Source: Nitrospinota bacterium
GTDB lineage: Bacteria > UBA8248
NCBI GenBank assembly: GCA_036231405.1
Contig: JAZAHK010000033.1
Coordinates: 1 to 57,780 of the forward strand
Length of the DNA: 57,780 nt
Reading direction: 5' to 3'
Made by a program: the position numbers and the translations under genes. Shown here one piece after another: positions 37,204 through 43,432 of this stretch; position 1 is the first letter of the stretch; each line of letters begins with the position of its first letter. The notes under the pieces were generated by a model. The model worked only from the letters and a program-made list of their open reading frames with translations, had not been told where the DNA came from and searched no databases.

Positions 37204-38226
37204 ATGGCAAAGATTTTTGTACCACAACCTATTCCTGAGGTAGCTGCCGCAGCACTCGATAAATTAGGTGAAGTAACCACATTTCCACACGTTGATCGTC
37301 AAATATCAGAAACTGAACTGCTTGAAGCTGTAGTTGATAAAGACATTCTTTTTGGTATAGGAGAAGTCCCTTTTAACGAACGAGTAATAAATGCAGCTAA
37401 AGAGTTAAAATTTATCTCCGTAATGCATGGGACCGCAAAATTTATAGACTTTGCAGCGGCAACTCGTCGAAATATCCCTGTGTCAGGTCAAAAAAGTATG
37501 ACCCGAAAAACTACCGCGGAATTTACATTCGCACTTTTGATGGCAACAGCGTGGCGATTACCTGAGGCAAATACATTCCTCCGTGAAGGACGTTGGCAAC
37601 AAAATCAATCTATGGCCTTCATGGGCACACGTCTTTATGATAAGACGCTTGGAATTGTTGGCATGGGACAAATCGGACAATTGGTTGCAAAAAAAGCTGT
37701 TGGATGTGATATGCGAATTATATACAACAAGAGATCACAACTAAGCCCAGCTGAAGAATTTGTTCTTGGCTCTGCTGAGTTTAAACCTCTAGATGATTTA
37801 TTTATGGAGTCAGATTTTATTGCACTAACGCCAGCTCTCACTAATGAAACGAAAGGACTTATAGACGAACGTTTAATTTCACTTATGAAACCTAGTGCGA
37901 TTCTTATAAATACTTCACGAGGACCTGTTATAGACGAACACGCTTTAGAAAGAGCACTTAGAGAAAAACGCATTCGGGGTGCTGGGATAGATGTTTACCA
38001 AACTGAGGTCCCTGAACCAAACCCTGGACCAATTGAGGGACTTAAAACTCTACCAAACGTTATTCTTACACCACATATAGGCAGTGCAGGTCGTGAAACA
38101 AGAGAAGAGATGGCCCTACGTACTGTGATGAATATAGAGAGATTTCTTAACAACCAGCGTCCTTACGATGTTTTTAATCCAGAAATTTACGGTGAAGCGG
38201 CCATAAAAGACGAGGTGATAGGATAG
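37204..38226 (+). CDS. D-isomer 2-hydroxyacid dehydrogenase (glyoxylate/hydroxypyruvate reductase-like)
   Basis: GIVGMGQIG, INTSRGPVIDE, TPHIGSA. Confidence 0.88.
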   Translation: MAKIFVPQPIPEVAAAALDKLGEVTTFPHVDRQISETELLEAVVDKDILFGIGEVPFNERVINAAKELKFISVMHGTAKFIDFAAATRRNIPVSGQKSMTRKTTAEFTFALLMATAWRLPEANTFLREGRWQQNQSMAFMGTRLYDKTLGIVGMGQIGQLVAKKAVGCDMRIIYNKRSQLSPAEEFVLGSAEFKPLDDLFMESDFIALTPALTNETKGLIDERLISLMKPSAILINTSRGPVIDEHALERALREKRIRGAGIDVYQTEVPEPNPGPIEGLKTLPNVILTPHIGSAGRETREEMALRTVMNIERFLNNQRPYDVFNPEIYGEAAIKDEVIG

Positions 38227-38286
38227 ATTTACAAAATAGAGTTTAAATTTAAGAAAAATAAACTCAGAAATTACCTTTTAAAAATT

Positions 38287-38829
38287 TCAGGAACTATTAA
38301 CGATTTTTTCTTCAAAAGAAAGAAGGGTTTTTTTGTTAGTAATTCCAGCAGAAAAACCACCGAGTTCACCTGAACTCGATATTACTCGGTGTCAAGGAAC
38401 AAAAAGGAGAAAGGGGTTTCTACTCATTACCTGACCTACCGCTCGAAAAGACTTAGGATTTCCTGATTTTTTTGCCAGCCATGAATATGTCCTAGTTTCC
38501 CCAAAAGGAATTTGCCTTGCTTCTTTTAGAACTCGGCGTGAAAACTTGCTAACCTTACTGTAATCAAGTGGAGTAGAAAAAGATTTTCTTTTCCCCTGAA
38601 AATACTCCTCTAATTGAGTCTTTGCCTGTTCTATAAGATATTCACTGTCTCTTTTTTTCTTAGAATCTTCTGAAGAAACATCGTTGCTAAGTAGAATTGA
38701 ATCAATTCCATTAGAAGTTGCGGAAATGTAAATTTCATTTCTCATTTTTTCTAATGAAAAAAGAAACTTTTTTTTTCTTAATCGTTTAAAATTTAATTTT
38801 GTTTTTTTCAAAGGTGTTTTGTTTTTCAT
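38287..38829 (-). CDS. ogt: Methylated-DNA--protein-cysteine methyltransferase, putative selenoprotein (TGA at 38392-38394 read as Sec); 180 aa
   Basis: IPFGETRTY, RAVGQ...NP; reading through TGA gives VP-U-HRVISSSGELGGFSAGITNKKTLLSFEEKIVNSS*, restoring the PCHR motif and the family C-terminus. Confidence 0.88.
38361..38378 (-). promoter_or_regulatory. Putative bacterial SECIS hairpin of ogt
   Basis: Stem CGAGUUC/GAACUCG with loop AGGU starting 21 nt after the UGA. Confidence 0.65.
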
Positions 38830-38832
38830 TTT

Positions 38833-40029
38833 TTAAAATGCAGAAACCAAATCTTCAAGATGAGTTTTTCCAATTCTAAGACGTAACAACTGATTAGTAC
38901 CATCTGAATGAAGAAATGTACTCGCATCTCTAAGATATTTTTCCATTGGAGCAGACTGCATTATGCCTGCACCTCCAAAAATTTCTACTCCTAATCTTGC
39001 ACAATCAAAAGCTACTTCAGAAGCAAAAACCTTACATTTCCACCCTTGGGTGAAATCATAAGGCTTTTGGTTGTCCACTGACCACGCTGTCCTCAAAATA
39101 TAATTCCTCGCAATATCAATATTCATTGCCATATCTGCCAACATCATCTCTATAGCTTGATGTTTTCCAATAAGTTTCCCTCCTTGCACTCTTTCCCTTG
39201 CGTGCATTAAGGAATGCTCAAATGCTGCCCGCCCAACTCCCAAAGCAGTCGCAGCGGCCTCAGGTTTCCCCATTGCAAGAAGATTTCCTCTTATTTCAAA
39301 CATGCTACCTTCACCAAGAATAATATGATCTTCGGGAATCTCAACGTTGTCAAAAAAAATCTCCGAATTCATAGAAAGTCTCTGGCCAATTTTTTCATTA
39401 ACCTCGCCAATTGAAATGCCTTTTGTTTCTCTTGGAACAAGAAAACCAGAAAGACCTTCTCTTAAATTTTTTTCTTTATCTGTTCTGGCTGCGACTACAT
39501 ACAAAGAAGCTACCGGTCCATTACTTATATAGCGCTTTTGACCATTTATTATCCATTTTCCGTTTTTTTTATGAGCAACTGTATTTAGTTCAACGGAGAC
39601 ATCATCATAATACCCCTGATGATCGCTTCCACAGCCCGGTTCAGTCATTGGAATTGCAGCCAAAAACCTGGGCTCTTCACACAATCTTTTAAGCCAAGGA
39701 TCACGAACATGTTCTTCAATTTTTTCTAAAATATGTGCAAGTTTCCAGGTTTGATCAAGATTCACAGCAAAACCCAAATCCCCCACTGCTAACTCTTCGC
39801 CAGCTAGACAACACGTTATAACATCCCCATCTAAGCCTCCAAATTTTTCAGGATACGGTAGTTGTCTAAGCCCTAGTTTGCTGGCTTTTTCAGTTAAATC
39901 CCAGGGCATTCTTTTTTCCCATTCTAAAATTTTATCTCGTTCTACCGCTACAGGAGCGATTTCTTCATAAGAGAATTTTCGGGCAATTCCTTGAATTTTT
40001 TTTTGCTTTTCGGTTAAATTGAAATCCAT
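38833..40029 (-). CDS. Acyl-CoA dehydrogenase family protein
   Basis: MTEPGCGSD, INGQKRYISNG, RVQGG, FGGAG, EKYLRDA. Confidence 0.92.
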   Translation of the reverse strand: MDFNLTEKQKKIQGIARKFSYEEIAPVAVERDKILEWEKRMPWDLTEKASKLGLRQLPYPEKFGGLDGDVITCCLAGEELAVGDLGFAVNLDQTWKLAHILEKIEEHVRDPWLKRLCEEPRFLAAIPMTEPGCGSDHQGYYDDVSVELNTVAHKKNGKWIINGQKRYISNGPVASLYVVAARTDKEKNLREGLSGFLVPRETKGISIGEVNEKIGQRLSMNSEIFFDNVEIPEDHIILGEGSMFEIRGNLLAMGKPEAAATALGVGRAAFEHSLMHARERVQGGKLIGKHQAIEMMLADMAMNIDIARNYILRTAWSVDNQKPYDFTQGWKCKVFASEVAFDCARLGVEIFGGAGIMQSAPMEKYLRDASTFLHSDGTNQLLRLRIGKTHLEDLVSAF

Positions 40030-40055
40030 TTTTTGCTTCCCTTAAATAAAACTAA

Positions 40056-40844
40056 CTATTCCCCTTTAAAAGTTGGCTTTCGCTTTTCCTTAAATGCAAG
40101 CAAGGCTTCCTTAAAATCTTTTGTAAAATTAAGTGGTTTTCGTTTTTCATGCGAAAAATCTAGAGCTTCTTTATTTTTCATCCCAATAGTTTGATCAATT
40201 ACAGACTTTGCTCCTTGAACACCTAGAGGACCATTGTCTCGGATTTGTTCAGCCACCTTCATTACTTCATCTATTAAAATATCTTTTTCAAAAGAACGAT
40301 TAGCTAACCCTATACGCTCAGCTTCAACCCCGTCTATGGACTTACTCGTATAAATAAGTTCCTTAGCAAGGCCTATAGGAATTAAACGTTGGAGACGTAC
40401 AACACCTCCACCGCCTGGAAAAATACCTAATCTGCATTCTGGAAGACATAAAGTAGCTTCTTTTGAAACGAACCTAAAATCACATGCGAGAGTAATCTCA
40501 ACACCCCAACCAAAAGCATGACCATTAATAGCCGCTATCGTAGGCATAGGCAGTGATTCCCATAAGGAACTAGTCTTCATTGTATTGTCTTGGAATAAAT
40601 TTGCATCTTCCTTGCTATGATTAGCGCTTTCTTTAAGATCTCTTCCAGTACTAAAAGAACGTCCACTACCTGTTAAAATAACAACTCTAAGGCTTTTCTT
40701 TTCTGAGAGTTCTTTCGAAATTTCGCAAAATTCTTCACACAAATTCATTCCAATTGAATTTAAGCGTTCCGGCCGGTTTAAGGTAACAACTCCTATTCCG
40801 TCAGTTTCTTCATAGATAATTTCTTTATAGCTACCCAAAAACAT
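40056..40844 (-). CDS. Enoyl-CoA hydratase/isomerase
   Basis: LNRPERLN, PTIAAINGHAFGWGVE, PECRLG, KRKPTFKG. Confidence 0.92.
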   Translation of the reverse strand: MFLGSYKEIIYEETDGIGVVTLNRPERLNSIGMNLCEEFCEISKELSEKKSLRVVILTGSGRSFSTGRDLKESANHSKEDANLFQDNTMKTSSLWESLPMPTIAAINGHAFGWGVEITLACDFRFVSKEATLCLPECRLGIFPGGGGVVRLQRLIPIGLAKELIYTSKSIDGVEAERIGLANRSFEKDILIDEVMKVAEQIRDNGPLGVQGAKSVIDQTIGMKNKEALDFSHEKRKPLNFTKDFKEALLAFKEKRKPTFKGE

Positions 40845-40878
40845 ACCCTCTCTTCTTTTGAGTGATTAAAATCTTTAT

Positions 40879-41409
40879 CTATTTTACTATTTGGCTAACA
40901 ATTTGATCTACAAAATCAATAGTCACTTTTTGCATTTCGTTCACACTTAAATTACTAACAGGATGAGGTAATTGGACAAAATCATGTGCAGGCATCCCTT
41001 TTCCACGAAACTGAAACTCAGCAGCAGACTTGAATGCTTCGGTGATTATTGTGGTTGCAGGAATCCCGTTTTTTTCAAACTGAACGGTGTCATGCACACT
41101 GCACAACGTGCAGGAGCCTCAACCTCCTAATGCTGCAACTGCAACATCTACTTCTTTAGACATTTTTTCGATCATCTCATCAGGAGCAGGCTTAGAGTAA
41201 TGTTCTTTCCTTTTTATAATTACTTTGGAAACATCAAATCTTTTTCTTAATTGCTCTCCTAGAGTATCTAAAATAATATCTGCCTGCTCTTTCGTATTAT
41301 CTATCATTCCAACTACTTTTCCAGCTAAAGCGGAAGGCCTTTCTGCAAGATCTATTTTTTCACTACTACTTGAAGCGGTGGGATCAACAAAATGAATTTT
41401 CTCTTCCAT
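40879..41409 (-). CDS. UGSC-family putative selenoprotein (TGA at 41119-41121 read as Sec); joins two ORF-track entries into 176 aa
   Basis: 41409-41119 and 41106-40879 share a frame; the junction reads TTA GGA GGT TGA GGC TCC TGC ACG TTG TGC AGT = LGG-U-GSCTLCS. Confidence 0.88.
41089..41107 (-). promoter_or_regulatory. Putative SECIS hairpin of the UGSC gene
   Basis: Stem GUUGUGCA/UGCAUGAC (2 G-U pairs) with loop GUG starting 20 nt after the UGA. Confidence 0.55.
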
Positions 41410-41546
41410 TAAACATTACCCTCCTCGTAAATTATAAGTATCTAGATACTATAGTCAGTTAATAATTGTGTCTACCATTTACATGTTATAAGCTCTTTAT
41501 GTTTTCATCTCATATATTAATTTAGTTAAATTTCTACTTCACTTGC

Positions 41547-41765
41547 ATGGAAAATTCTCCAGATGAAATAATTGGTGAATTTCAATCGGTAATTTTAGAA
41601 TGCGGAGAAGGCGCAGGTCCTTTCGGAGCTAAAGGGGTAGGAGAACCACCAAGCAATAATGCCCCGGCATCTGTCGCGATCGCCGTTAGTAACGCTATAG
41701 AAATGGAGATTCTTGAACTTCCTATTACACCGGAAAGTGTGTTGAACGCGATACAGAGAACATAA
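41547..41765 (+). pseudogene. Chimeric fragment: C-terminus of a xanthine dehydrogenase/CoxL-family Mo-binding subunit fused to 11 codons shared with the neighbouring gene
   Basis: GPFGAKGVGEP...AVSNAI...ELPITPESV matches the molybdo-hydroxylase C-terminus; N-terminal ENSPDEIIGEF is identical to a stretch of 41792..42811. Confidence 0.75.
41550..41583 (+). repeat. Left copy of a perfect 34-bp inverted repeat
   Basis: GAAAATTCTCCAGATGAAATAATTGGTGAATTTC. Confidence 0.95.
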
Positions 41766-41791
41766 AATATTTATGTTAAAATGTTTTATTT

Positions 41792-42811
41792 TTAAAATTT
41801 TTTTGAAACCGCACGACTTGTGCCATTCCAACCATTCATTACAGCAGACATTGGACCTGGAATACCTCCAGCCACAATTATGAACAATCTTTCGGGGTCT
41901 TTTACGGAAGGAACAAAAAAATTATCATCTTCTAGATCAACATTAATAGACCAAGACTTTATACGAGATACGTTATAACGACCCGTATTTTTAATACTTG
42001 CTAGAGGCCTCCCAGCTGTTTCTAATAAAATTTCCTTCACATTTGCTTTAGAAAGCCCGGCATCAGAGCAGATTTTAGCCTGCTGAGGTGAAAAAATAAC
42101 TATTTGATCAGTATCACCGCAAATATTCATAGCTCCAAGGTGAGACATTGTATCAGCAACACTTTTTAATAAAGGTTCGGGCTCCTTACTCATATCATCC
42201 CATACGGTGGTGGGGCTTTCTGCAGCAATTGCAGTCACCACATTTTCTTTTTCCGAAAATCCAAGGGTAACAGACAAAGGTTCCCAAGGACTTTCTGCTT
42301 CATTTTCTGCTATACAAAAAGTATATCTTGAAGAACTAGAAAAAGTACTCATTGTAGAAATTCCAGGTATTCCTGAGCCTAAATTCATCATCATTAGTCG
42401 TATTGCTCTGCCAATCGTAGCGTTTGCCCTAAACCCAGGTCCAAAGCAACCAAGTCCGCCATTTAAACCTATCTCGCTTGCACAGGAACCATTTACAAGC
42501 AAAAAAGGTGCAGCGGGAGAAAGAGTCGCTTGGAGACCATTTAAATTGAACTTTTCCATTAAAATTGCACGAACCGAAATGAGCAATAAATTCATATACT
42601 CTGGTTTACAGCCTGCCATTACGCCATGTACTGCTACCGAATAAATGGATACGCTTGTATAAGCTGGGGGAAATTCACCAATTATTTCATCTGGAGAATT
42701 TTCTATGGAAGAAAGTAATAAAGAAATTTTTTCTTCTGTTGGAGGAATAATCGGCAAACCATCCGACCATTCTTTTTCGAAAAAAAACTCAAATTCATCT
42801 GAAGGAGCCAT
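41792..42811 (-). CDS. Conserved hypothetical protein, probable partner of the UGSC protein; start ATG 42811
   Basis: WSDGLPIIPPT, AV.GVMAGC.PEY, GPGFRANATIGRAIRL, AENEAESPW, IVAGG; association with UGSC proteins is from recall. Confidence 0.8.
   Translation of the reverse strand: MAPSDEFEFFFEKEWSDGLPIIPPTEEKISLLLSSIENSPDEIIGEFPPAYTSVSIYSVAVHGVMAGCKPEYMNLLLISVRAILMEKFNLNGLQATLSPAAPFLLVNGSCASEIGLNGGLGCFGPGFRANATIGRAIRLMMMNLGSGIPGISTMSTFSSSSRYTFCIAENEAESPWEPLSVTLGFSEKENVVTAIAAESPTTVWDDMSKEPEPLLKSVADTMSHLGAMNICGDTDQIVIFSPQQAKICSDAGLSKANVKEILLETAGRPLASIKNTGRYNVSRIKSWSINVDLEDDNFFVPSVKDPERLFIIVAGGIPGPMSAVMNGWNGTSRAVSKKF
42670..42703 (-). repeat. Right copy of the 34-bp inverted repeat, inside the CDS
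   Basis: GAAATTCACCAATTATTTCATCTGGAGAATTTTC is the exact reverse complement of 41550-41583. Confidence 0.95.
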
Positions 42812-42837: not shown

Positions 42838-43065
42838 CTATCTTCTTCTTACGACAATCCAAGAAAGTATAGCCAAAGTGAATAAGCCAACAAGATTGTT
42901 CTTTCCTATTACTTTCAAAACCTGCTCTAAATTTCCCACAACATCAAAACCAACAAATGAGAAATCTTTTCCGAAAATGACTTGAAGGACAATTGCAATT
43001 CCTGCAATCAAAACTCCAACTTCAAGAATATCCTTTAAATACCTTTTTAGTTGATTGAGAAACAT
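42838..43065 (-). CDS. Small membrane protein (75 aa), paralog of 43205..43432
   Basis: AIVLQ.IFGK..SF.G.DV.GN...LVGL shared with the neighbour; SD GGAG. Confidence 0.8.
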   Translation of the reverse strand: MFLNQLKRYLKDILEVGVLIAGIAIVLQVIFGKDFSFVGFDVVGNLEQVLKVIGKNNLVGLFTLAILSWIVVRRR

Positions 43066-43153
43066 ATCTCTCTCCCGATATCAATCAAAACGAAAAATAG
43101 TTATTTTTCGACTACAAAAACTCCTTGTAAAACATAAACATCATATAACAAAA

Positions 43154-43182
43154 ATCCCCGCCACAAAACCTATGGCGGGGAT
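43154..43182 (-). terminator. Rho-independent terminator between the two small paralogs
   Basis: 10-bp stem ATCCCCGCCA/TGGCGGGGAT plus TTTTGT on the minus strand. Confidence 0.8.
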
Positions 43183-43204
43183 CTTGTTCTTCTGGTTCCG
43201 AAGC

Positions 43205-43432
43205 CTAGCTTCTGCTTCTTACAAGCCAGATAAGCGTACCAATTGTTACTAATCCGACCAATCCAGCGTTTCCTAAATCACCTACAATTTTTGTTATATT
43301 ACCTATTACATCGGCTCCAATGAATGCGACTTGTTTCCCAAAAACAAGCTGTAGGACAATTGCTAATCCTGCAAGTCCTAAACCTACATCCACGAGATCC
43401 TTAATCCAACCTTTCACTCGATCCAGCATCAT
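43205..43432 (-). CDS. Small membrane protein (75 aa)
   Basis: Strong SD AAGGAGGAG, own terminator, two hydrophobic helices. Confidence 0.85.
   Translation of the reverse strand: MMLDRVKGWIKDLVDVGLGLAGLAIVLQLVFGKQVAFIGADVIGNITKIVGDLGNAGLVGLVTIGTLIWLVRSRS

Follow-up and report, generated by a model that had tools for sequence, protein, structure and literature searches.

The window, a 57,780-nucleotide stretch of DNA from a Nitrospinota bacterium, derives from a small marine organism with a 2.09-Mb genome. Five genes on its minus strand, between positions 38287 and 42811, follow one another in the order partner, UGSC, enoyl-CoA hydratase (ECH), acyl-CoA dehydrogenase (ACAD) and Ogt:

41792..42811, minus strand: partner gene of the 'Unknown_1' family, 339 aa, with the start set at the ATG common to its homologues
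40879..41409, minus strand: UGSC family selenoprotein gene, 176 aa, with U97-G-S-C100 (PF24696, E 3.7e-50)
40056..40844, minus strand: ECH, 262 aa (PF00378, E 1.4e-55)
38833..40029, minus strand: ACAD, 398 aa, with three ACAD domains
38287..38829, minus strand: Ogt (PF01035, PF02870, TIGR00589), a methylated-DNA-protein-cysteine methyltransferase with selenocysteine (Sec) at the acceptor site (VPUHRV)
37204..38226, plus strand: D-isomer 2-hydroxyacid dehydrogenase, convergent to the cluster and given for context only

Calculated from the coordinates, the spacers are 382 nt (partner/UGSC), 34 nt (UGSC/ECH), 26 nt (ECH/ACAD) and 3 nt (ACAD/Ogt), in agreement with the initial annotation, which had reported five co-oriented genes with the last four 34, 26 and 3 nt apart. 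A gene of the D-isomer 2-hydroxyacid dehydrogenase family is also found near the partner-UGSC pair on contig C3, which has an acetyl-CoA hydrolase/transferase gene upstream. Three further features belong to the 382-nt spacer and the partner gene:

41547..41765, plus strand: C-terminal remnant of a molybdenum enzyme (molybdenum hydroxylase) of the xanthine dehydrogenase family, a 72-codon ORF with NCBIfam C-terminal matches
41542..41583, no strand assigned: inverted repeat arm 1, 34 nt exact, 42 nt at 95%
42670..42711, no strand assigned: inverted repeat arm 2, within the partner gene

Over 60 aa, the remnant shares 68% identity with the enzyme at locus L012 (its residues 743-802; E 7e-28); an intact molybdenum enzyme gene stands in its place in other genera, with full genes at L011 and L012, and about 294 nt of the remnant region are absent from genomes G001-G003. 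Contigs of three runs join the remnant to the partner gene, and the first repeat arm, which abuts the remnant, copies the partner codons for ENSPDEIIGEF. Because the spacer holds this opposite-strand remnant, we describe the unit as one gene plus four rather than as one proven operon. The single five-gene operon proposed initially is not shown, since other genera have a gene on the opposite strand between partner and UGSC. Promoter-like and terminator-like sites were no more frequent than in shuffled sequences. We infer that UGSC, ECH, ACAD and Ogt are probably carried on one transcript and that the partner gene may have a transcript of its own.

Two of the genes contain in-frame TGA codons, each with a hairpin:

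41119..41121, minus strand: Sec codon (TGA) of UGSC, yielding GG-U-GSC
41089..41107, minus strand: SECIS hairpin of UGSC, 8 pairs with a GUG loop
38392..38394, minus strand: Sec codon (TGA) of Ogt, yielding VP-U-HRV, at the position of the active-site cysteine
38361..38378, minus strand: SECIS hairpin of Ogt, 7 pairs with an AGGU loop, also flagged as terminator-like

The in-frame TGAs of UGSC and Ogt exceed chance, and Sec decoding is in place: the genome has selB (392 bits), selA (569 bits) and tRNA-Sec, which together with the SECIS hairpins back the earlier claim of two genes with Sec-type TGA codons. In the UGSC hairpin, compensatory changes on both sides preserve 6 of the 8 pairs (RNAalifold, 31 sequences), and foreign contigs pile up on the stretch 41089..41107; for the Ogt hairpin, 79% of cells pair, against 29-46% in slid controls. 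The second Ogt TGA, at 38287-38289, most plausibly serves as the stop.

The UGSC gene is a full member of its family (PF24696, NF041046; the 'UGSC-containing protein' of PMC2398784), scoring 142 bits against NF041046 (cut-off 125), lying above the cut-off for PF24696 as well, and having the motif, the TGA and the SECIS element. U97, G98 and C100 are invariant among 40 UGSC sequences. Among matches in other phyla, the same codon is TGA in 64 of 72 (59 UGSC, 4 UGAC, 1 UGGC) and encodes Cys in 2; Sec forms thus far exceed Cys forms, as they do in the GOS data (255 Sec and 21 Cys; Table 2 of PMC2398784). The fold, guessed in that paper to be thioredoxin-like, is instead a five-stranded parallel Rossmann/flavodoxin-like sandwich in our AlphaFold2 model (pLDDT 93.5), with Sec at the N-terminus of helix 98-113 and with no thioredoxin-fold chain among the best 50 of either list of structural matches.

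The partner matches no Pfam or NCBIfam model, and its profile found nothing among PDB sequences, although its family is large (4585 clusters at 50% identity, E <= 0.001). Cys68, in the motif MAGC, is near-invariant (80 of 81 sequences), and G67, N130, G134, R135, E169 and G315 are present in all 81. Of its other cysteines, C166 is conserved in 75/81 and C122 in 37/81 sequences; C166 is missing from both other partner paralogues of the genome, and a fixed two-cysteine mechanism within the partner is therefore unlikely. The AlphaFold2 model (pLDDT 95.2) has no clear solved structural relative, the best VIA Z being 5.1. Foldseek returned four significant PDB matches, each of them a class I fumarate hydratase (for 7xky_A, E 2.1e-4 and probability 0.96), and the two longest VIA-align alignments were to 7xky_A (174 residues, Z 4.4) and to L. 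major 6mso_A (179 residues, Z 3.7), while the low-Z list also includes Fe-S serine dehydratase, CyuA and MmgE/PrpD chains; TM-scores are just 0.29-0.33 with an rmsd near 16 Å, and a Z below 8 may, according to the tool notes, reflect a mere common arrangement.

We observed that partner and UGSC form a genuine and very widespread two-gene core module. This genome alone holds three paralogous pairs. Other phyla contributed 79 loci with 89 partner genes, of which 67 are accompanied by UGSC on the same strand within 700 nt; at 6 of these loci a partner was found without UGSC in the fetched flanks. The partner lies directly upstream in 29/30 UGSC-anchored loci, which represent one orthologue group in related genomes. 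The two are also fused, in both orders: 14 of 30 long homologues are full UGSC-partner fusions, 5 are cut at the Sec TGA, and 3 consist of the partner and the N-terminal half of UGSC, ending just before Sec. The initial annotation had suggested that the two proteins may form a unit, and these counts bear out that they belong together. Other fusions of the partner in the same set of 30 are to a redoxin (2), to FTR-B (ferredoxin-thioredoxin-reductase; 1) and to a thioredoxin-reductase-like flavoprotein (1), and the thiol/selenol redox role suggested earlier fits both these fusions and the partner's single near-invariant cysteine.

The association was already in print as a domain fusion, for a UGSC/Unknown_1 fusion was shown by Zhang and Gladyshev in 2008 (Fig. 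S1A, PMC2398784), and the printed Unknown_1 block, AVNGVMAGC(R/K)PEYMP, in which a conserved Cys is marked, corresponds to AVHGVMAGCKPEYMN of the partner (Cys68). The partner differs from the printed fusion in being mostly a separate gene adjoining UGSC and in being fused to other redox modules as well. UGSC is termed uncharacterised in reviews up to 2026, and the literature contains no experiment on either family and describes no function for them. The initial description of the system as undescribed is therefore correct as to function and incorrect as to the families, UGSC/Unknown_1 having been printed in 2008 and Sec-Ogt being a listed selenoprotein family.

ECH matches short-chain enoyl-CoA hydratases over its full length, its closest solved chain being 3kqf (178 bits), and retains both glutamates of the hydratase motifs. 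ACAD likewise matches all domains of the medium/short-chain acyl-CoA dehydrogenases over its full length, with pig MCAD as the closest solved structure (3mdd, 232 bits), but it reads SDGT where MCAD has YEGT, so that Asp occupies the position of the catalytic Glu; SDGT is found in all eight ACAD orthologues detected in relatives (703-840 bits). Neither protein reaches any NCBIfam equivalog cut-off.

Sec forms of methylated-DNA-protein-cysteine methyltransferase are listed in PMC1976440, PMC2398784 and PMC13188914, and the Ogt described here shares with them Sec in place of the acceptor Cys of P-C-H-R-V, together with both Ogt domains. The GOS data hold 1 Sec against 2,879 Cys sequences of this enzyme, whereas Sec-Ogt is commoner than the Cys form in relatives of this organism (same-codon TGA in 21/30 best Ogt loci, Cys in 8/30) and is the last gene of the UGSC cluster. 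In PMC4150793, human AGT engineered to C145U repairs MNNG damage. The genome has no other Ogt match, which fits ordinary DNA repair; the initial annotation had raised protection against alkylating intermediates as a possible role.

Of 20 loci in the organism's family, drawn from several genera, 16 have UGSC next to ECH and Ogt close by, and 8 have ACAD; the linkage of ECH, ACAD and Ogt on which the initial annotation depended is thus present in relatives. The complete five-gene order is found in G001 and G002, while elsewhere the interval from ECH to Ogt varies (CBS, Amdase, a second ECH, ACAD present or absent). Conservation inside one family may reflect inherited synteny only. In other phyla, single-sequence searches of the 79 loci found ECH in 6, ACAD in 5 and Ogt in 2, and among 368 scanned flanking ORFs we counted 23 Bac_luciferase, 16 TctC, 11 CoA_transf_3 and only 2 Pyr_redox_2 matches. 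An acyl-CoA link is not general among the pair's neighbours, nor is a reductase close by; acyl-CoA genes as general companions of the pair are not upheld, and the thioether catabolism proposed earlier found no support in this analysis.

These counts bear on a reading in which only the partner-UGSC pair is functional as a unit, ECH and ACAD serving ordinary beta-oxidation and Ogt ordinary repair, and their common location being owed to a gene order inherited within a single bacterial family, without any pathway in common. The many different contexts in other phyla, the variable ECH-Ogt interval and the single copy of Ogt speak for it, as do Burkholderiales loci that encode the most similar UGSC proteins (53-64% identity) and have no adjoining ECH or ACAD. 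However, the UGSC-ECH adjacency persists across several genera as the surrounding genes change, the last three spacers are 34, 26 and 3 nt, the ACAD is of an unusual and tightly conserved type, and unrelated pairs in other phyla directly adjoin such genes (two ACADs directly upstream at L045 and L053, ECH at L049). We regard this reading as rather unlikely.

Glycine reductase depends on thioredoxin. A second reading would liken UGSC to selenoprotein B (GrdB/PrdB): the UGSC selenol would attack a substrate bound to the partner and cleave a C-N, C-O or C-S bond reductively by way of a selenoether, with the partner replacing the pyruvoyl protein GrdE/PrdA and with ECH and ACAD processing the acyl product. 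GrdB/PrdB (PF07355) and its proprotein subunit GrdE/PrdA (PF09338) likewise pair a Sec protein with a larger substrate subunit. A profile-profile alignment of 40 UGSC and 12 GrdB-like sequences places Sec on Sec (probability 66.9%, E 5.2e-5) over 80 columns that run through the E-x-x-G-I-P and H-P motifs up to the C-terminus, and a cluster on contig C40 of the genome (GrdE-like, Sec-GrdB-like and CoA-transferase genes) indicates that glycine-reductase-like chemistry with a CoA link exists in this cell. The thioredoxin-reductase-like fusion of the partner recalls the thioredoxin dependence of glycine reductase, and the fusions suggest such a dependence for the pair. Nevertheless, hhalign gives no more than a moderate probability, and the C-terminal half alone aligns; UGSC has no PF07355 match at E <= 0.01, and GrdB/PrdB have about 430-440 aa against its 176; the GrdB-like proteins examined read U-G-T-G/S and lack a cysteine three residues on, which is invariant in UGSC; comparison of the partner with the GrdE-like protein revealed no similarity (E 0.28, probability 0.2%); and no GrdA-like or GrdC/D-like genes were seen among the scanned neighbours of the pair. 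We consider this reading improbable.

Class I fumarases have three cluster ligands. In a third reading the partner would be an enzyme without redox chemistry, for instance a hydro-lyase or isomerase with a distant likeness to the class I fumarate hydratase fold, and UGSC would only keep the partner's cysteine reduced or regulate the partner as a protective or activating redoxin, not as a catalytic subunit. We consider this very unlikely: the structural matches given above point that way, as do hydroxyacid dehydrogenases, MmgE/PrpD, CoA-transferases and TctC proteins, which bind carboxylates, among the neighbours, but the structural scores are low, the three ligands are absent since Cys68 alone is near-universal, and one would not expect a simple protector to be so regularly fused or adjacent, or to contain Sec in so many cases.

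We thus favour, with a probability of about 0.6, a conserved two-protein enzyme of partner and UGSC as the core of a family-wide cluster, most likely a thiol/selenol enzyme that is linked to thioredoxin and has an organic acid or acyl-CoA as its substrate. The partner would be the substrate-handling subunit, working through Cys68, and the small Rossmann-like UGSC, with U97-x-x-C100 at a helix start, its dedicated selenol/thiol redox subunit. The UGSC selenol would attack the oxidised or substrate-loaded Cys68, Cys100 would resolve the Se-S bond, and the resulting selenenylsulfide would be re-reduced by a thioredoxin-type system, the order of these steps and the electron donor being proposed as parts of the model. 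Methionine sulfoxide reductases, ArsC-type arsenate reductases and peroxiredoxins have a catalytic cysteine that is recycled by thioredoxin. The resemblance would be one of working only: an enzyme cysteine would be regenerated by a dithiol, here a selenol-thiol, redoxin, and natural fusions to redoxins or reductases occur likewise, whereas we found no relation in sequence or fold.

This copy of the pair belongs to a cluster that the organism's family retains, with one or more partners, a molybdenum hydroxylase (decayed here) and UGSC-ECH-(ACAD)-Ogt, and given this membership the substrate is probably a small organic acid, handled in the model as its CoA ester. Ogt is most likely an ordinary O6-alkylguanine repair protein in a Sec form typical of the lineage, which would be retained in the cluster through synteny rather than chemistry.

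The five genes at 38287-42811 lie on the minus strand, separated, from partner to Ogt, by 382, 34, 26 and 3 nt. The initial annotation had described them as co-oriented genes with Sec-type TGA codons and very short last spacers, and the coordinates, the SECIS elements and the Sec machinery of the genome all bear this out. The features are as follows.

42811-41792, minus strand (41792-42811): partner of the UGSC protein, 339 aa; no Pfam or NCBIfam match
41542-41583 and 42670-42711: arms of an inverted repeat, the second inside the partner gene
41547-41765, plus strand: 72-codon remnant ORF of a molybdenum-hydroxylase gene, within the 382-nt spacer (41410-41791)
40879-41409, minus strand: UGSC-family protein; PF24696, NF041046
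41119-41121, minus strand: Sec codon of UGSC, TGA in GG-U-GSC, codon 97, by in-frame reading
41089-41107, minus strand: UGSC SECIS hairpin, 3' of the TGA, from RNAalifold
40056-40844, minus strand: enoyl-CoA hydratase (ECH); PF00378
38833-40029, minus strand: acyl-CoA dehydrogenase (ACAD); PF02771, PF02770, PF00441
38287-38829, minus strand: Ogt; PF01035, PF02870, TIGR00589
38392-38394, minus strand: Sec codon of Ogt, TGA in VP-U-HRV, at the acceptor-cysteine position of the family
38361-38378, minus strand: Ogt SECIS hairpin, from a column-pairing count

The UGSC gene is a member of the PF24696/NF041046 family, scoring 170.9 bits against PF24696 (cut-off 25; profile positions 2-170 of 172) and 142.2 bits against NF041046 (cut-off 125), and both in-frame TGAs are selenocysteine codons. 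Residues U97, G98 and C100 of UGSC are invariant among 40 sequences, and the genome of the window (2.09 Mb in 48 contigs) contains selB, selA and tRNA-Sec. RNAalifold predicted the UGSC hairpin from 31 sequences, with six of its eight pairs kept through changes on both sides; its nucleotides are almost unchanged between the low-GC genome of the window and high-GC Burkholderiales. The hairpin tested in the Ogt region was not returned by RNAalifold and was counted separately: 79.4% of cells pair, against 28.9-46.4% with the pairing columns slid, and none of 500 shuffles reached this value. That the TGAs are sequencing errors or marks of pseudogenes is ruled out, since the same codon is conserved across taxa and a SECIS accompanies each.

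The codons following Sec in UGSC (C-T-L-C-S-V-H-D; 41088-41122) hardly differ at synonymous sites between low-GC and high-GC bacteria; the SECIS fixes the nucleotide sequence, and in the metagenome runs contigs of unrelated organisms pile up exactly on this SECIS stretch. The second Ogt TGA, at 38287-38289, is likely the stop codon; it reads TGG in contigs of two sequencing runs (X1 and X7), which would add three residues up to a TAA at 38278-38280. The Ogt SECIS and its T-run (38358-38381) were picked up by a terminator scan and might pass for an intragenic intrinsic terminator.

With regard to a possible single five-gene operon, the last four genes form a tight run, and the partner gene, whose ATG start at 42811 is common to its homologues, lies upstream of it beyond the gene remnant. 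Residues 9-68 of the remnant ORF match residues 743-802 of an 815-aa molybdenum enzyme at locus L012 of another genome (68% identity, E 7e-28). Ahead of the ORF stand 34 nt that repeat partner codons exactly in inverted orientation. Other genera keep the molybdenum-hydroxylase gene intact; three genomes of the same genus have nothing of it, and there about 294 nt are missing at the spacer, leaving spacers of about 90-105 nt. Metagenome contigs from four DNA runs cover the region at 2-5x in pieces of 160-790 nt, none of which spans the whole stretch; those listed leave 41538-41626, with an inverted-repeat arm, uncovered, and the stretch from the remnant to the 3' end of the partner gene is bridged by contigs of three runs, each from a different study. 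An assembly chimera joining partner to UGSC is therefore out, given these bridging contigs and the same gene order in the same-genus genomes G001-G003. Genomes of this genus measure 2.0-2.2 Mb, whereas most others listed for the family have 2.8-4.6 Mb. The simplest reading is that the molybdenum gene was lost stepwise in a genus with reduced genomes, a reading that leaves the origin of the partner-derived 34 nt unexplained.

The initial annotation had suggested that the partner and UGSC may be two subunits of one enzyme, and the genomic record upholds them as a unit across distant taxa. Three UGSC genes, all with a single TGA, are present in the window's genome; each lies just downstream of a partner paralogue (three of three pairs), and these paralogues share 38-43% identity. 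We scanned one genome per species for further partner genes and kept 79 loci with 89 of them, from Burkholderiales, Dehalococcoidia, Methylomirabilota/Rokubacteria, Binatia, Nitrospinae-labelled bins and others. A UGSC gene lies on the same strand within 700 nt of 67 of the 89 (46 downstream, 21 upstream); among the remaining 22, ten are within 800 nt of a contig end, six have UGSC elsewhere in the locus, and for six UGSC was not found in the fetched flanks. Conversely, the partner is directly upstream of UGSC in 29 of 30 UGSC-anchored loci, which constitute one orthologue group of related genomes and are not independent. Over the 79 loci of other phyla, the motif in 72 UGSC matches is UGSC in 59, UGAC in four, UGGC in one and CGSC in two, with the pattern unmatched in six.

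Fusions point the same way. Among 30 long partner homologues, 22 are joined to UGSC sequence: 14 are UGSC-partner fusions, three join the partner to the N-terminal half of UGSC and stop just short of Sec, and five begin with the piece of UGSC downstream of Sec and are therefore Sec fusions cut by gene callers. The others comprise two partners with a redoxin/AhpC-TSA domain, one with a ferredoxin-thioredoxin reductase catalytic subunit, one with a thioredoxin-reductase-like flavoprotein, three tandem partners and one with nothing extra. We consider that these sequences provide good evidence for a pair that would act through a thioredoxin-linked thiol/selenol mechanism.

The partner family is large: 6609 of 8000 scored proteins have E <= 0.001, and at 50% identity there are 4585 clusters, 1021 of them with E <= 1e-30. 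Among the 120 matches listed, no homologue carries a Pfam domain and nearly all those named by their source are 'hypothetical'. The pair is genuine and very widespread, a candidate selenoenzyme and a functional orphan. Among isolates, Cys-form pairs are recorded in the genomes of Parapusillimonas granuli LMG 24012 and an Achromobacter sp. For a naturally fused Cys-form protein (P0160), a predicted complex of its two domains scored ipSAE 0.18 and 0.16 against a mark of 0.34 and gave no answer.

Several features of copy number accompany the pair. Tandem partner genes in two to four copies are frequent (for example L011 3126-6271, L123 and L136), and fused double-length partners of about 710-740 aa also occur (P0122, P0124, P0138). 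Each of the 41 genomes sampled from the window's family (relatives G001-G057) carries 2-9 copies of UGSC, and every one of the 150 UGSC matches listed for relatives has one TGA; UGSC was not found in eight genomes of two other families of the phylum.

The families themselves, and their fusion, are already in print; what is new is the variant in the window and its details. Fig. S1A of PMC2398784 depicts a 'UGSC/Unknown_1' fusion with an alignment block, AVNGVMAGC(R/K)PEYMP, that is the Cys68 motif of the partner, which is therefore Unknown_1. UGSC is counted among uncharacterised selenoproteins in a 2026 review (PMC13188914), and full-text literature searches turned up, among the hits listed, no paper that gives it a function. 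Sec-Ogt is likewise listed in PMC1976440, PMC2398784 and PMC13188914.

Foldseek searches, suggested in the initial annotation, gave weak matches to class I fumarate hydratases for the partner and generic matches for UGSC. The partner model (pLDDT 95.2, pTM 0.93) matches these hydratases with E from 2e-4 to 1e-3 (best 2.1e-4) and TM 0.29-0.33, and aligns with one in VIA-align at Z 4.4 (174 residues, rmsd 5.2). It has no clear solved relative, the best VIA-align Z over 48,161 chains being 5.1, and its sequence profile found nothing below E 1.9 in the PDB. In the ESM Atlas it falls among unnamed clusters of its own family, one of them auto-named 'thiol-disulfide oxidoreductase family'.

Class I fumarate hydratases bind a [4Fe-4S] cluster through three conserved cysteine ligands. 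These ligands are unmatched in the partner, where C68 is kept in 80, C166 in 75 and C122 in only 37 of 81 sequences, whereas G67, N130, G134, R135, E169 and G315 are kept in all 81; C166 is moreover absent from the other two paralogues of the window's genome. A single universal cysteine speaks against an Fe-S site with three cysteines and in favour of one putative nucleophile.

The UGSC model (pLDDT 93.5) is a five-stranded parallel alpha/beta sandwich (beta-alpha x5), with Sec97 at the start of helix 98-113. Its best 50 Foldseek and best 50 VIA-align rows are generic, of flavodoxin, CheY, SDR or SIS-like type, and its profile found nothing meaningful among PDB sequences. A thioredoxin-like fold was proposed for UGSC in PMC2398784; no thioredoxin-fold redoxin is among either set of 50 rows, an absence from a list that is compatible with such a fold.

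Glycine-reductase protein B provides a second point of comparison. UGSC has no PF07355 match at E <= 0.01, while the GrdB-like gene of the same genome scores 404 bits, and UGSC is therefore not a PF07355 member. When a UGSC profile of 40 proteins was compared by hhalign with a GrdB-like profile of 12 proteins from relatives, Sec aligned on Sec over 80 columns reaching the C-terminus (E 5.2e-5, probability 66.9%); against a single GrdB-like sequence the probability was 2.2%. On this profile alignment, the part of UGSC that bears Sec may share a remote ancestor with that of GrdB. GrdB and PrdB differ from UGSC in their companion, the pyruvoyl proprotein GrdE/PrdA (PF09338), which the Pfam-less partner does not match; partner against the GrdE-like protein of the window's genome gave E 0.28 and probability 0.2% in hhalign. 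That GrdE-like gene belongs to a row on another contig of the genome, C40 (2438-6158; L169 115-3835), with a Sec GrdB-like gene (T-U-G-T-G-T) and a CoA-transferase gene, a second selenoprotein-B-type, CoA-linked system in a 2.1-Mb marine genome.

The link of the pair to ECH, ACAD and Ogt is real in the bacterial family of the window and is not general. We examined twenty stretches from relatives, each anchored on the best Ogt match. Far from being unlinked, UGSC adjoins ECH with Ogt within about 4 kb in 16 of them, with ACAD too in eight, and same-strand partner genes lie upstream in 11. The five-gene order of the window recurs in the same-genus genomes G001 and G002; G003 lacks ACAD and has a Cys-form Ogt. 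The other stretches are two short contigs, one with ECH and without UGSC, and one, from another family of the class, with Ogt alone. The two of the 79 loci closest by partner identity (58% and 51%; L011 and L012) carry partner genes, then an oppositely oriented molybdopterin hydroxylase gene of full length, and beyond it UGSC, ECH, a CBS protein and Ogt, with an Amdase-family gene also in L012; the Ogt frame in both stops at the acceptor codon.

Outside the family, single-sequence searches of the 79 loci found ECH in six, ACAD in five and Ogt in two. A Pfam census of 368 flanking ORFs (five of the original 373, over 900 aa, were dropped) counted the 25 commonest families per batch, so that lower counts are minima: Bac_luciferase 23, TctC 16, CoA_transf_3 11, NHL at least 9, MmgE/PrpD at least 4, ACAD at least 3 and Pyr_redox_2 at least 2. 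There is no universal third gene beside the pair. Acyl-CoA and organic-acid enzymes do recur beside unrelated pairs, with two ACADs directly upstream in each of L045 and L053 and an ECH in L049. On contig C3 of the window's genome an acetyl-CoA hydrolase/transferase gene lies upstream of the pair, and 2-hydroxyacid dehydrogenase genes lie near the pairs of C3 and of the window's own contig, C33. The initial interpretation is partly supported: the comparisons favour the pair and a thiol/selenol redox mechanism, and the tie to ECH, ACAD and Ogt holds within the bacterial family without being general. A pathway of thioether or DMSP type is rejected, no result having spoken for it.

Scans for transcription signals matched expectation from shuffles, with 15 promoter-like sites against 16.2 and four terminator-like sites, one of them the Ogt SECIS, against 4.3. 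Just upstream of the partner gene are two paralogous genes for 75-aa membrane proteins (42838-43065 and 43205-43432, minus strand), with a 16-pair terminator-like hairpin between them (43151-43185); both occur in G001 and one in G003, and none was found in the other loci searched.

The ECH scores 188.8 bits against PF00378, its nearest relatives are short-chain hydratases (3kqf, 178 bits), and its GVEITLACD and LPECRLGIFPG segments align with the two motif glutamates of 3kqf, which in enoyl-CoA hydratases are catalytic. The ACAD exceeds all three Pfam cut-offs and is nearest to the medium-chain enzyme MCAD (3mdd, 232 bits over residues 2-391). In MCAD/SCAD-type dehydrogenases the Glu of the Y-E-G-T motif is the catalytic base; in the window's ACAD it is replaced by Asp (HSDGT). 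All eight orthologues in relatives share this Asp (SDGT; 703-840 bits; L120, L121, L126-L128, L131, L132, L134). EGT stands instead in four unrelated ACADs close to other pairs, two at L045 and two at L053, and in the ACAD beside the L082 pair.

Ogt has the DNA-binding methyltransferase domain of its family, scores 102 bits against PF01035, 31 against PF02870 and 95 against TIGR00589, and is the single match in the window's genome. It differs from the P-C-H-R-V acceptor site of the Ogt/MGMT family in that Sec replaces Cys. Among the best 30 loci, including its own, the acceptor codon is TGA in 21 and Cys in eight, with one unmatched, and Sec is the common state in this lineage. In many relatives a further Ogt-like gene, of Cys type and often longer, is present (L090-L138; G001-G040). 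A Sec acceptor is chemically sound, since a human AGT engineered to carry Sec in place of Cys145 is reported to shield E. coli from MNNG (PMC4150793).

Taken as a whole, we hypothesize, tentatively and with a probability of about 0.2, that the pair represents a new Se-dependent enzyme class. The tail of glycine/proline-reductase protein B, with its Sec, would be the ancestor of UGSC, and a structurally novel cysteine subunit would take the place of the pyruvoyl subunit. The enzyme would act on a substituent of small organic acids or of their CoA esters, removing or reducing it. In this lineage the product would go to the dedicated hydratase and the unusual Asp-type ACAD, and the many paralogues of the family (relatives carry 2-9 UGSC copies per genome) would be diversified in substrate.

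With a defined partner, the function of UGSC would become a bench question. The case for this partner is that the two are nearly always adjacent or fused, that the partner has one invariant cysteine, and that it is elsewhere fused to thioredoxin-system modules. The Cys-form pairs in isolate genome records make the experiment practical. The window adds a lineage that ties the pair to a hydratase and a peculiar ACAD, which narrows the search for substrates. The Sec-form DNA alkyl-repair protein of the same lineage is a rare example in nature of a single-turnover protein in which each repair costs one selenium atom.
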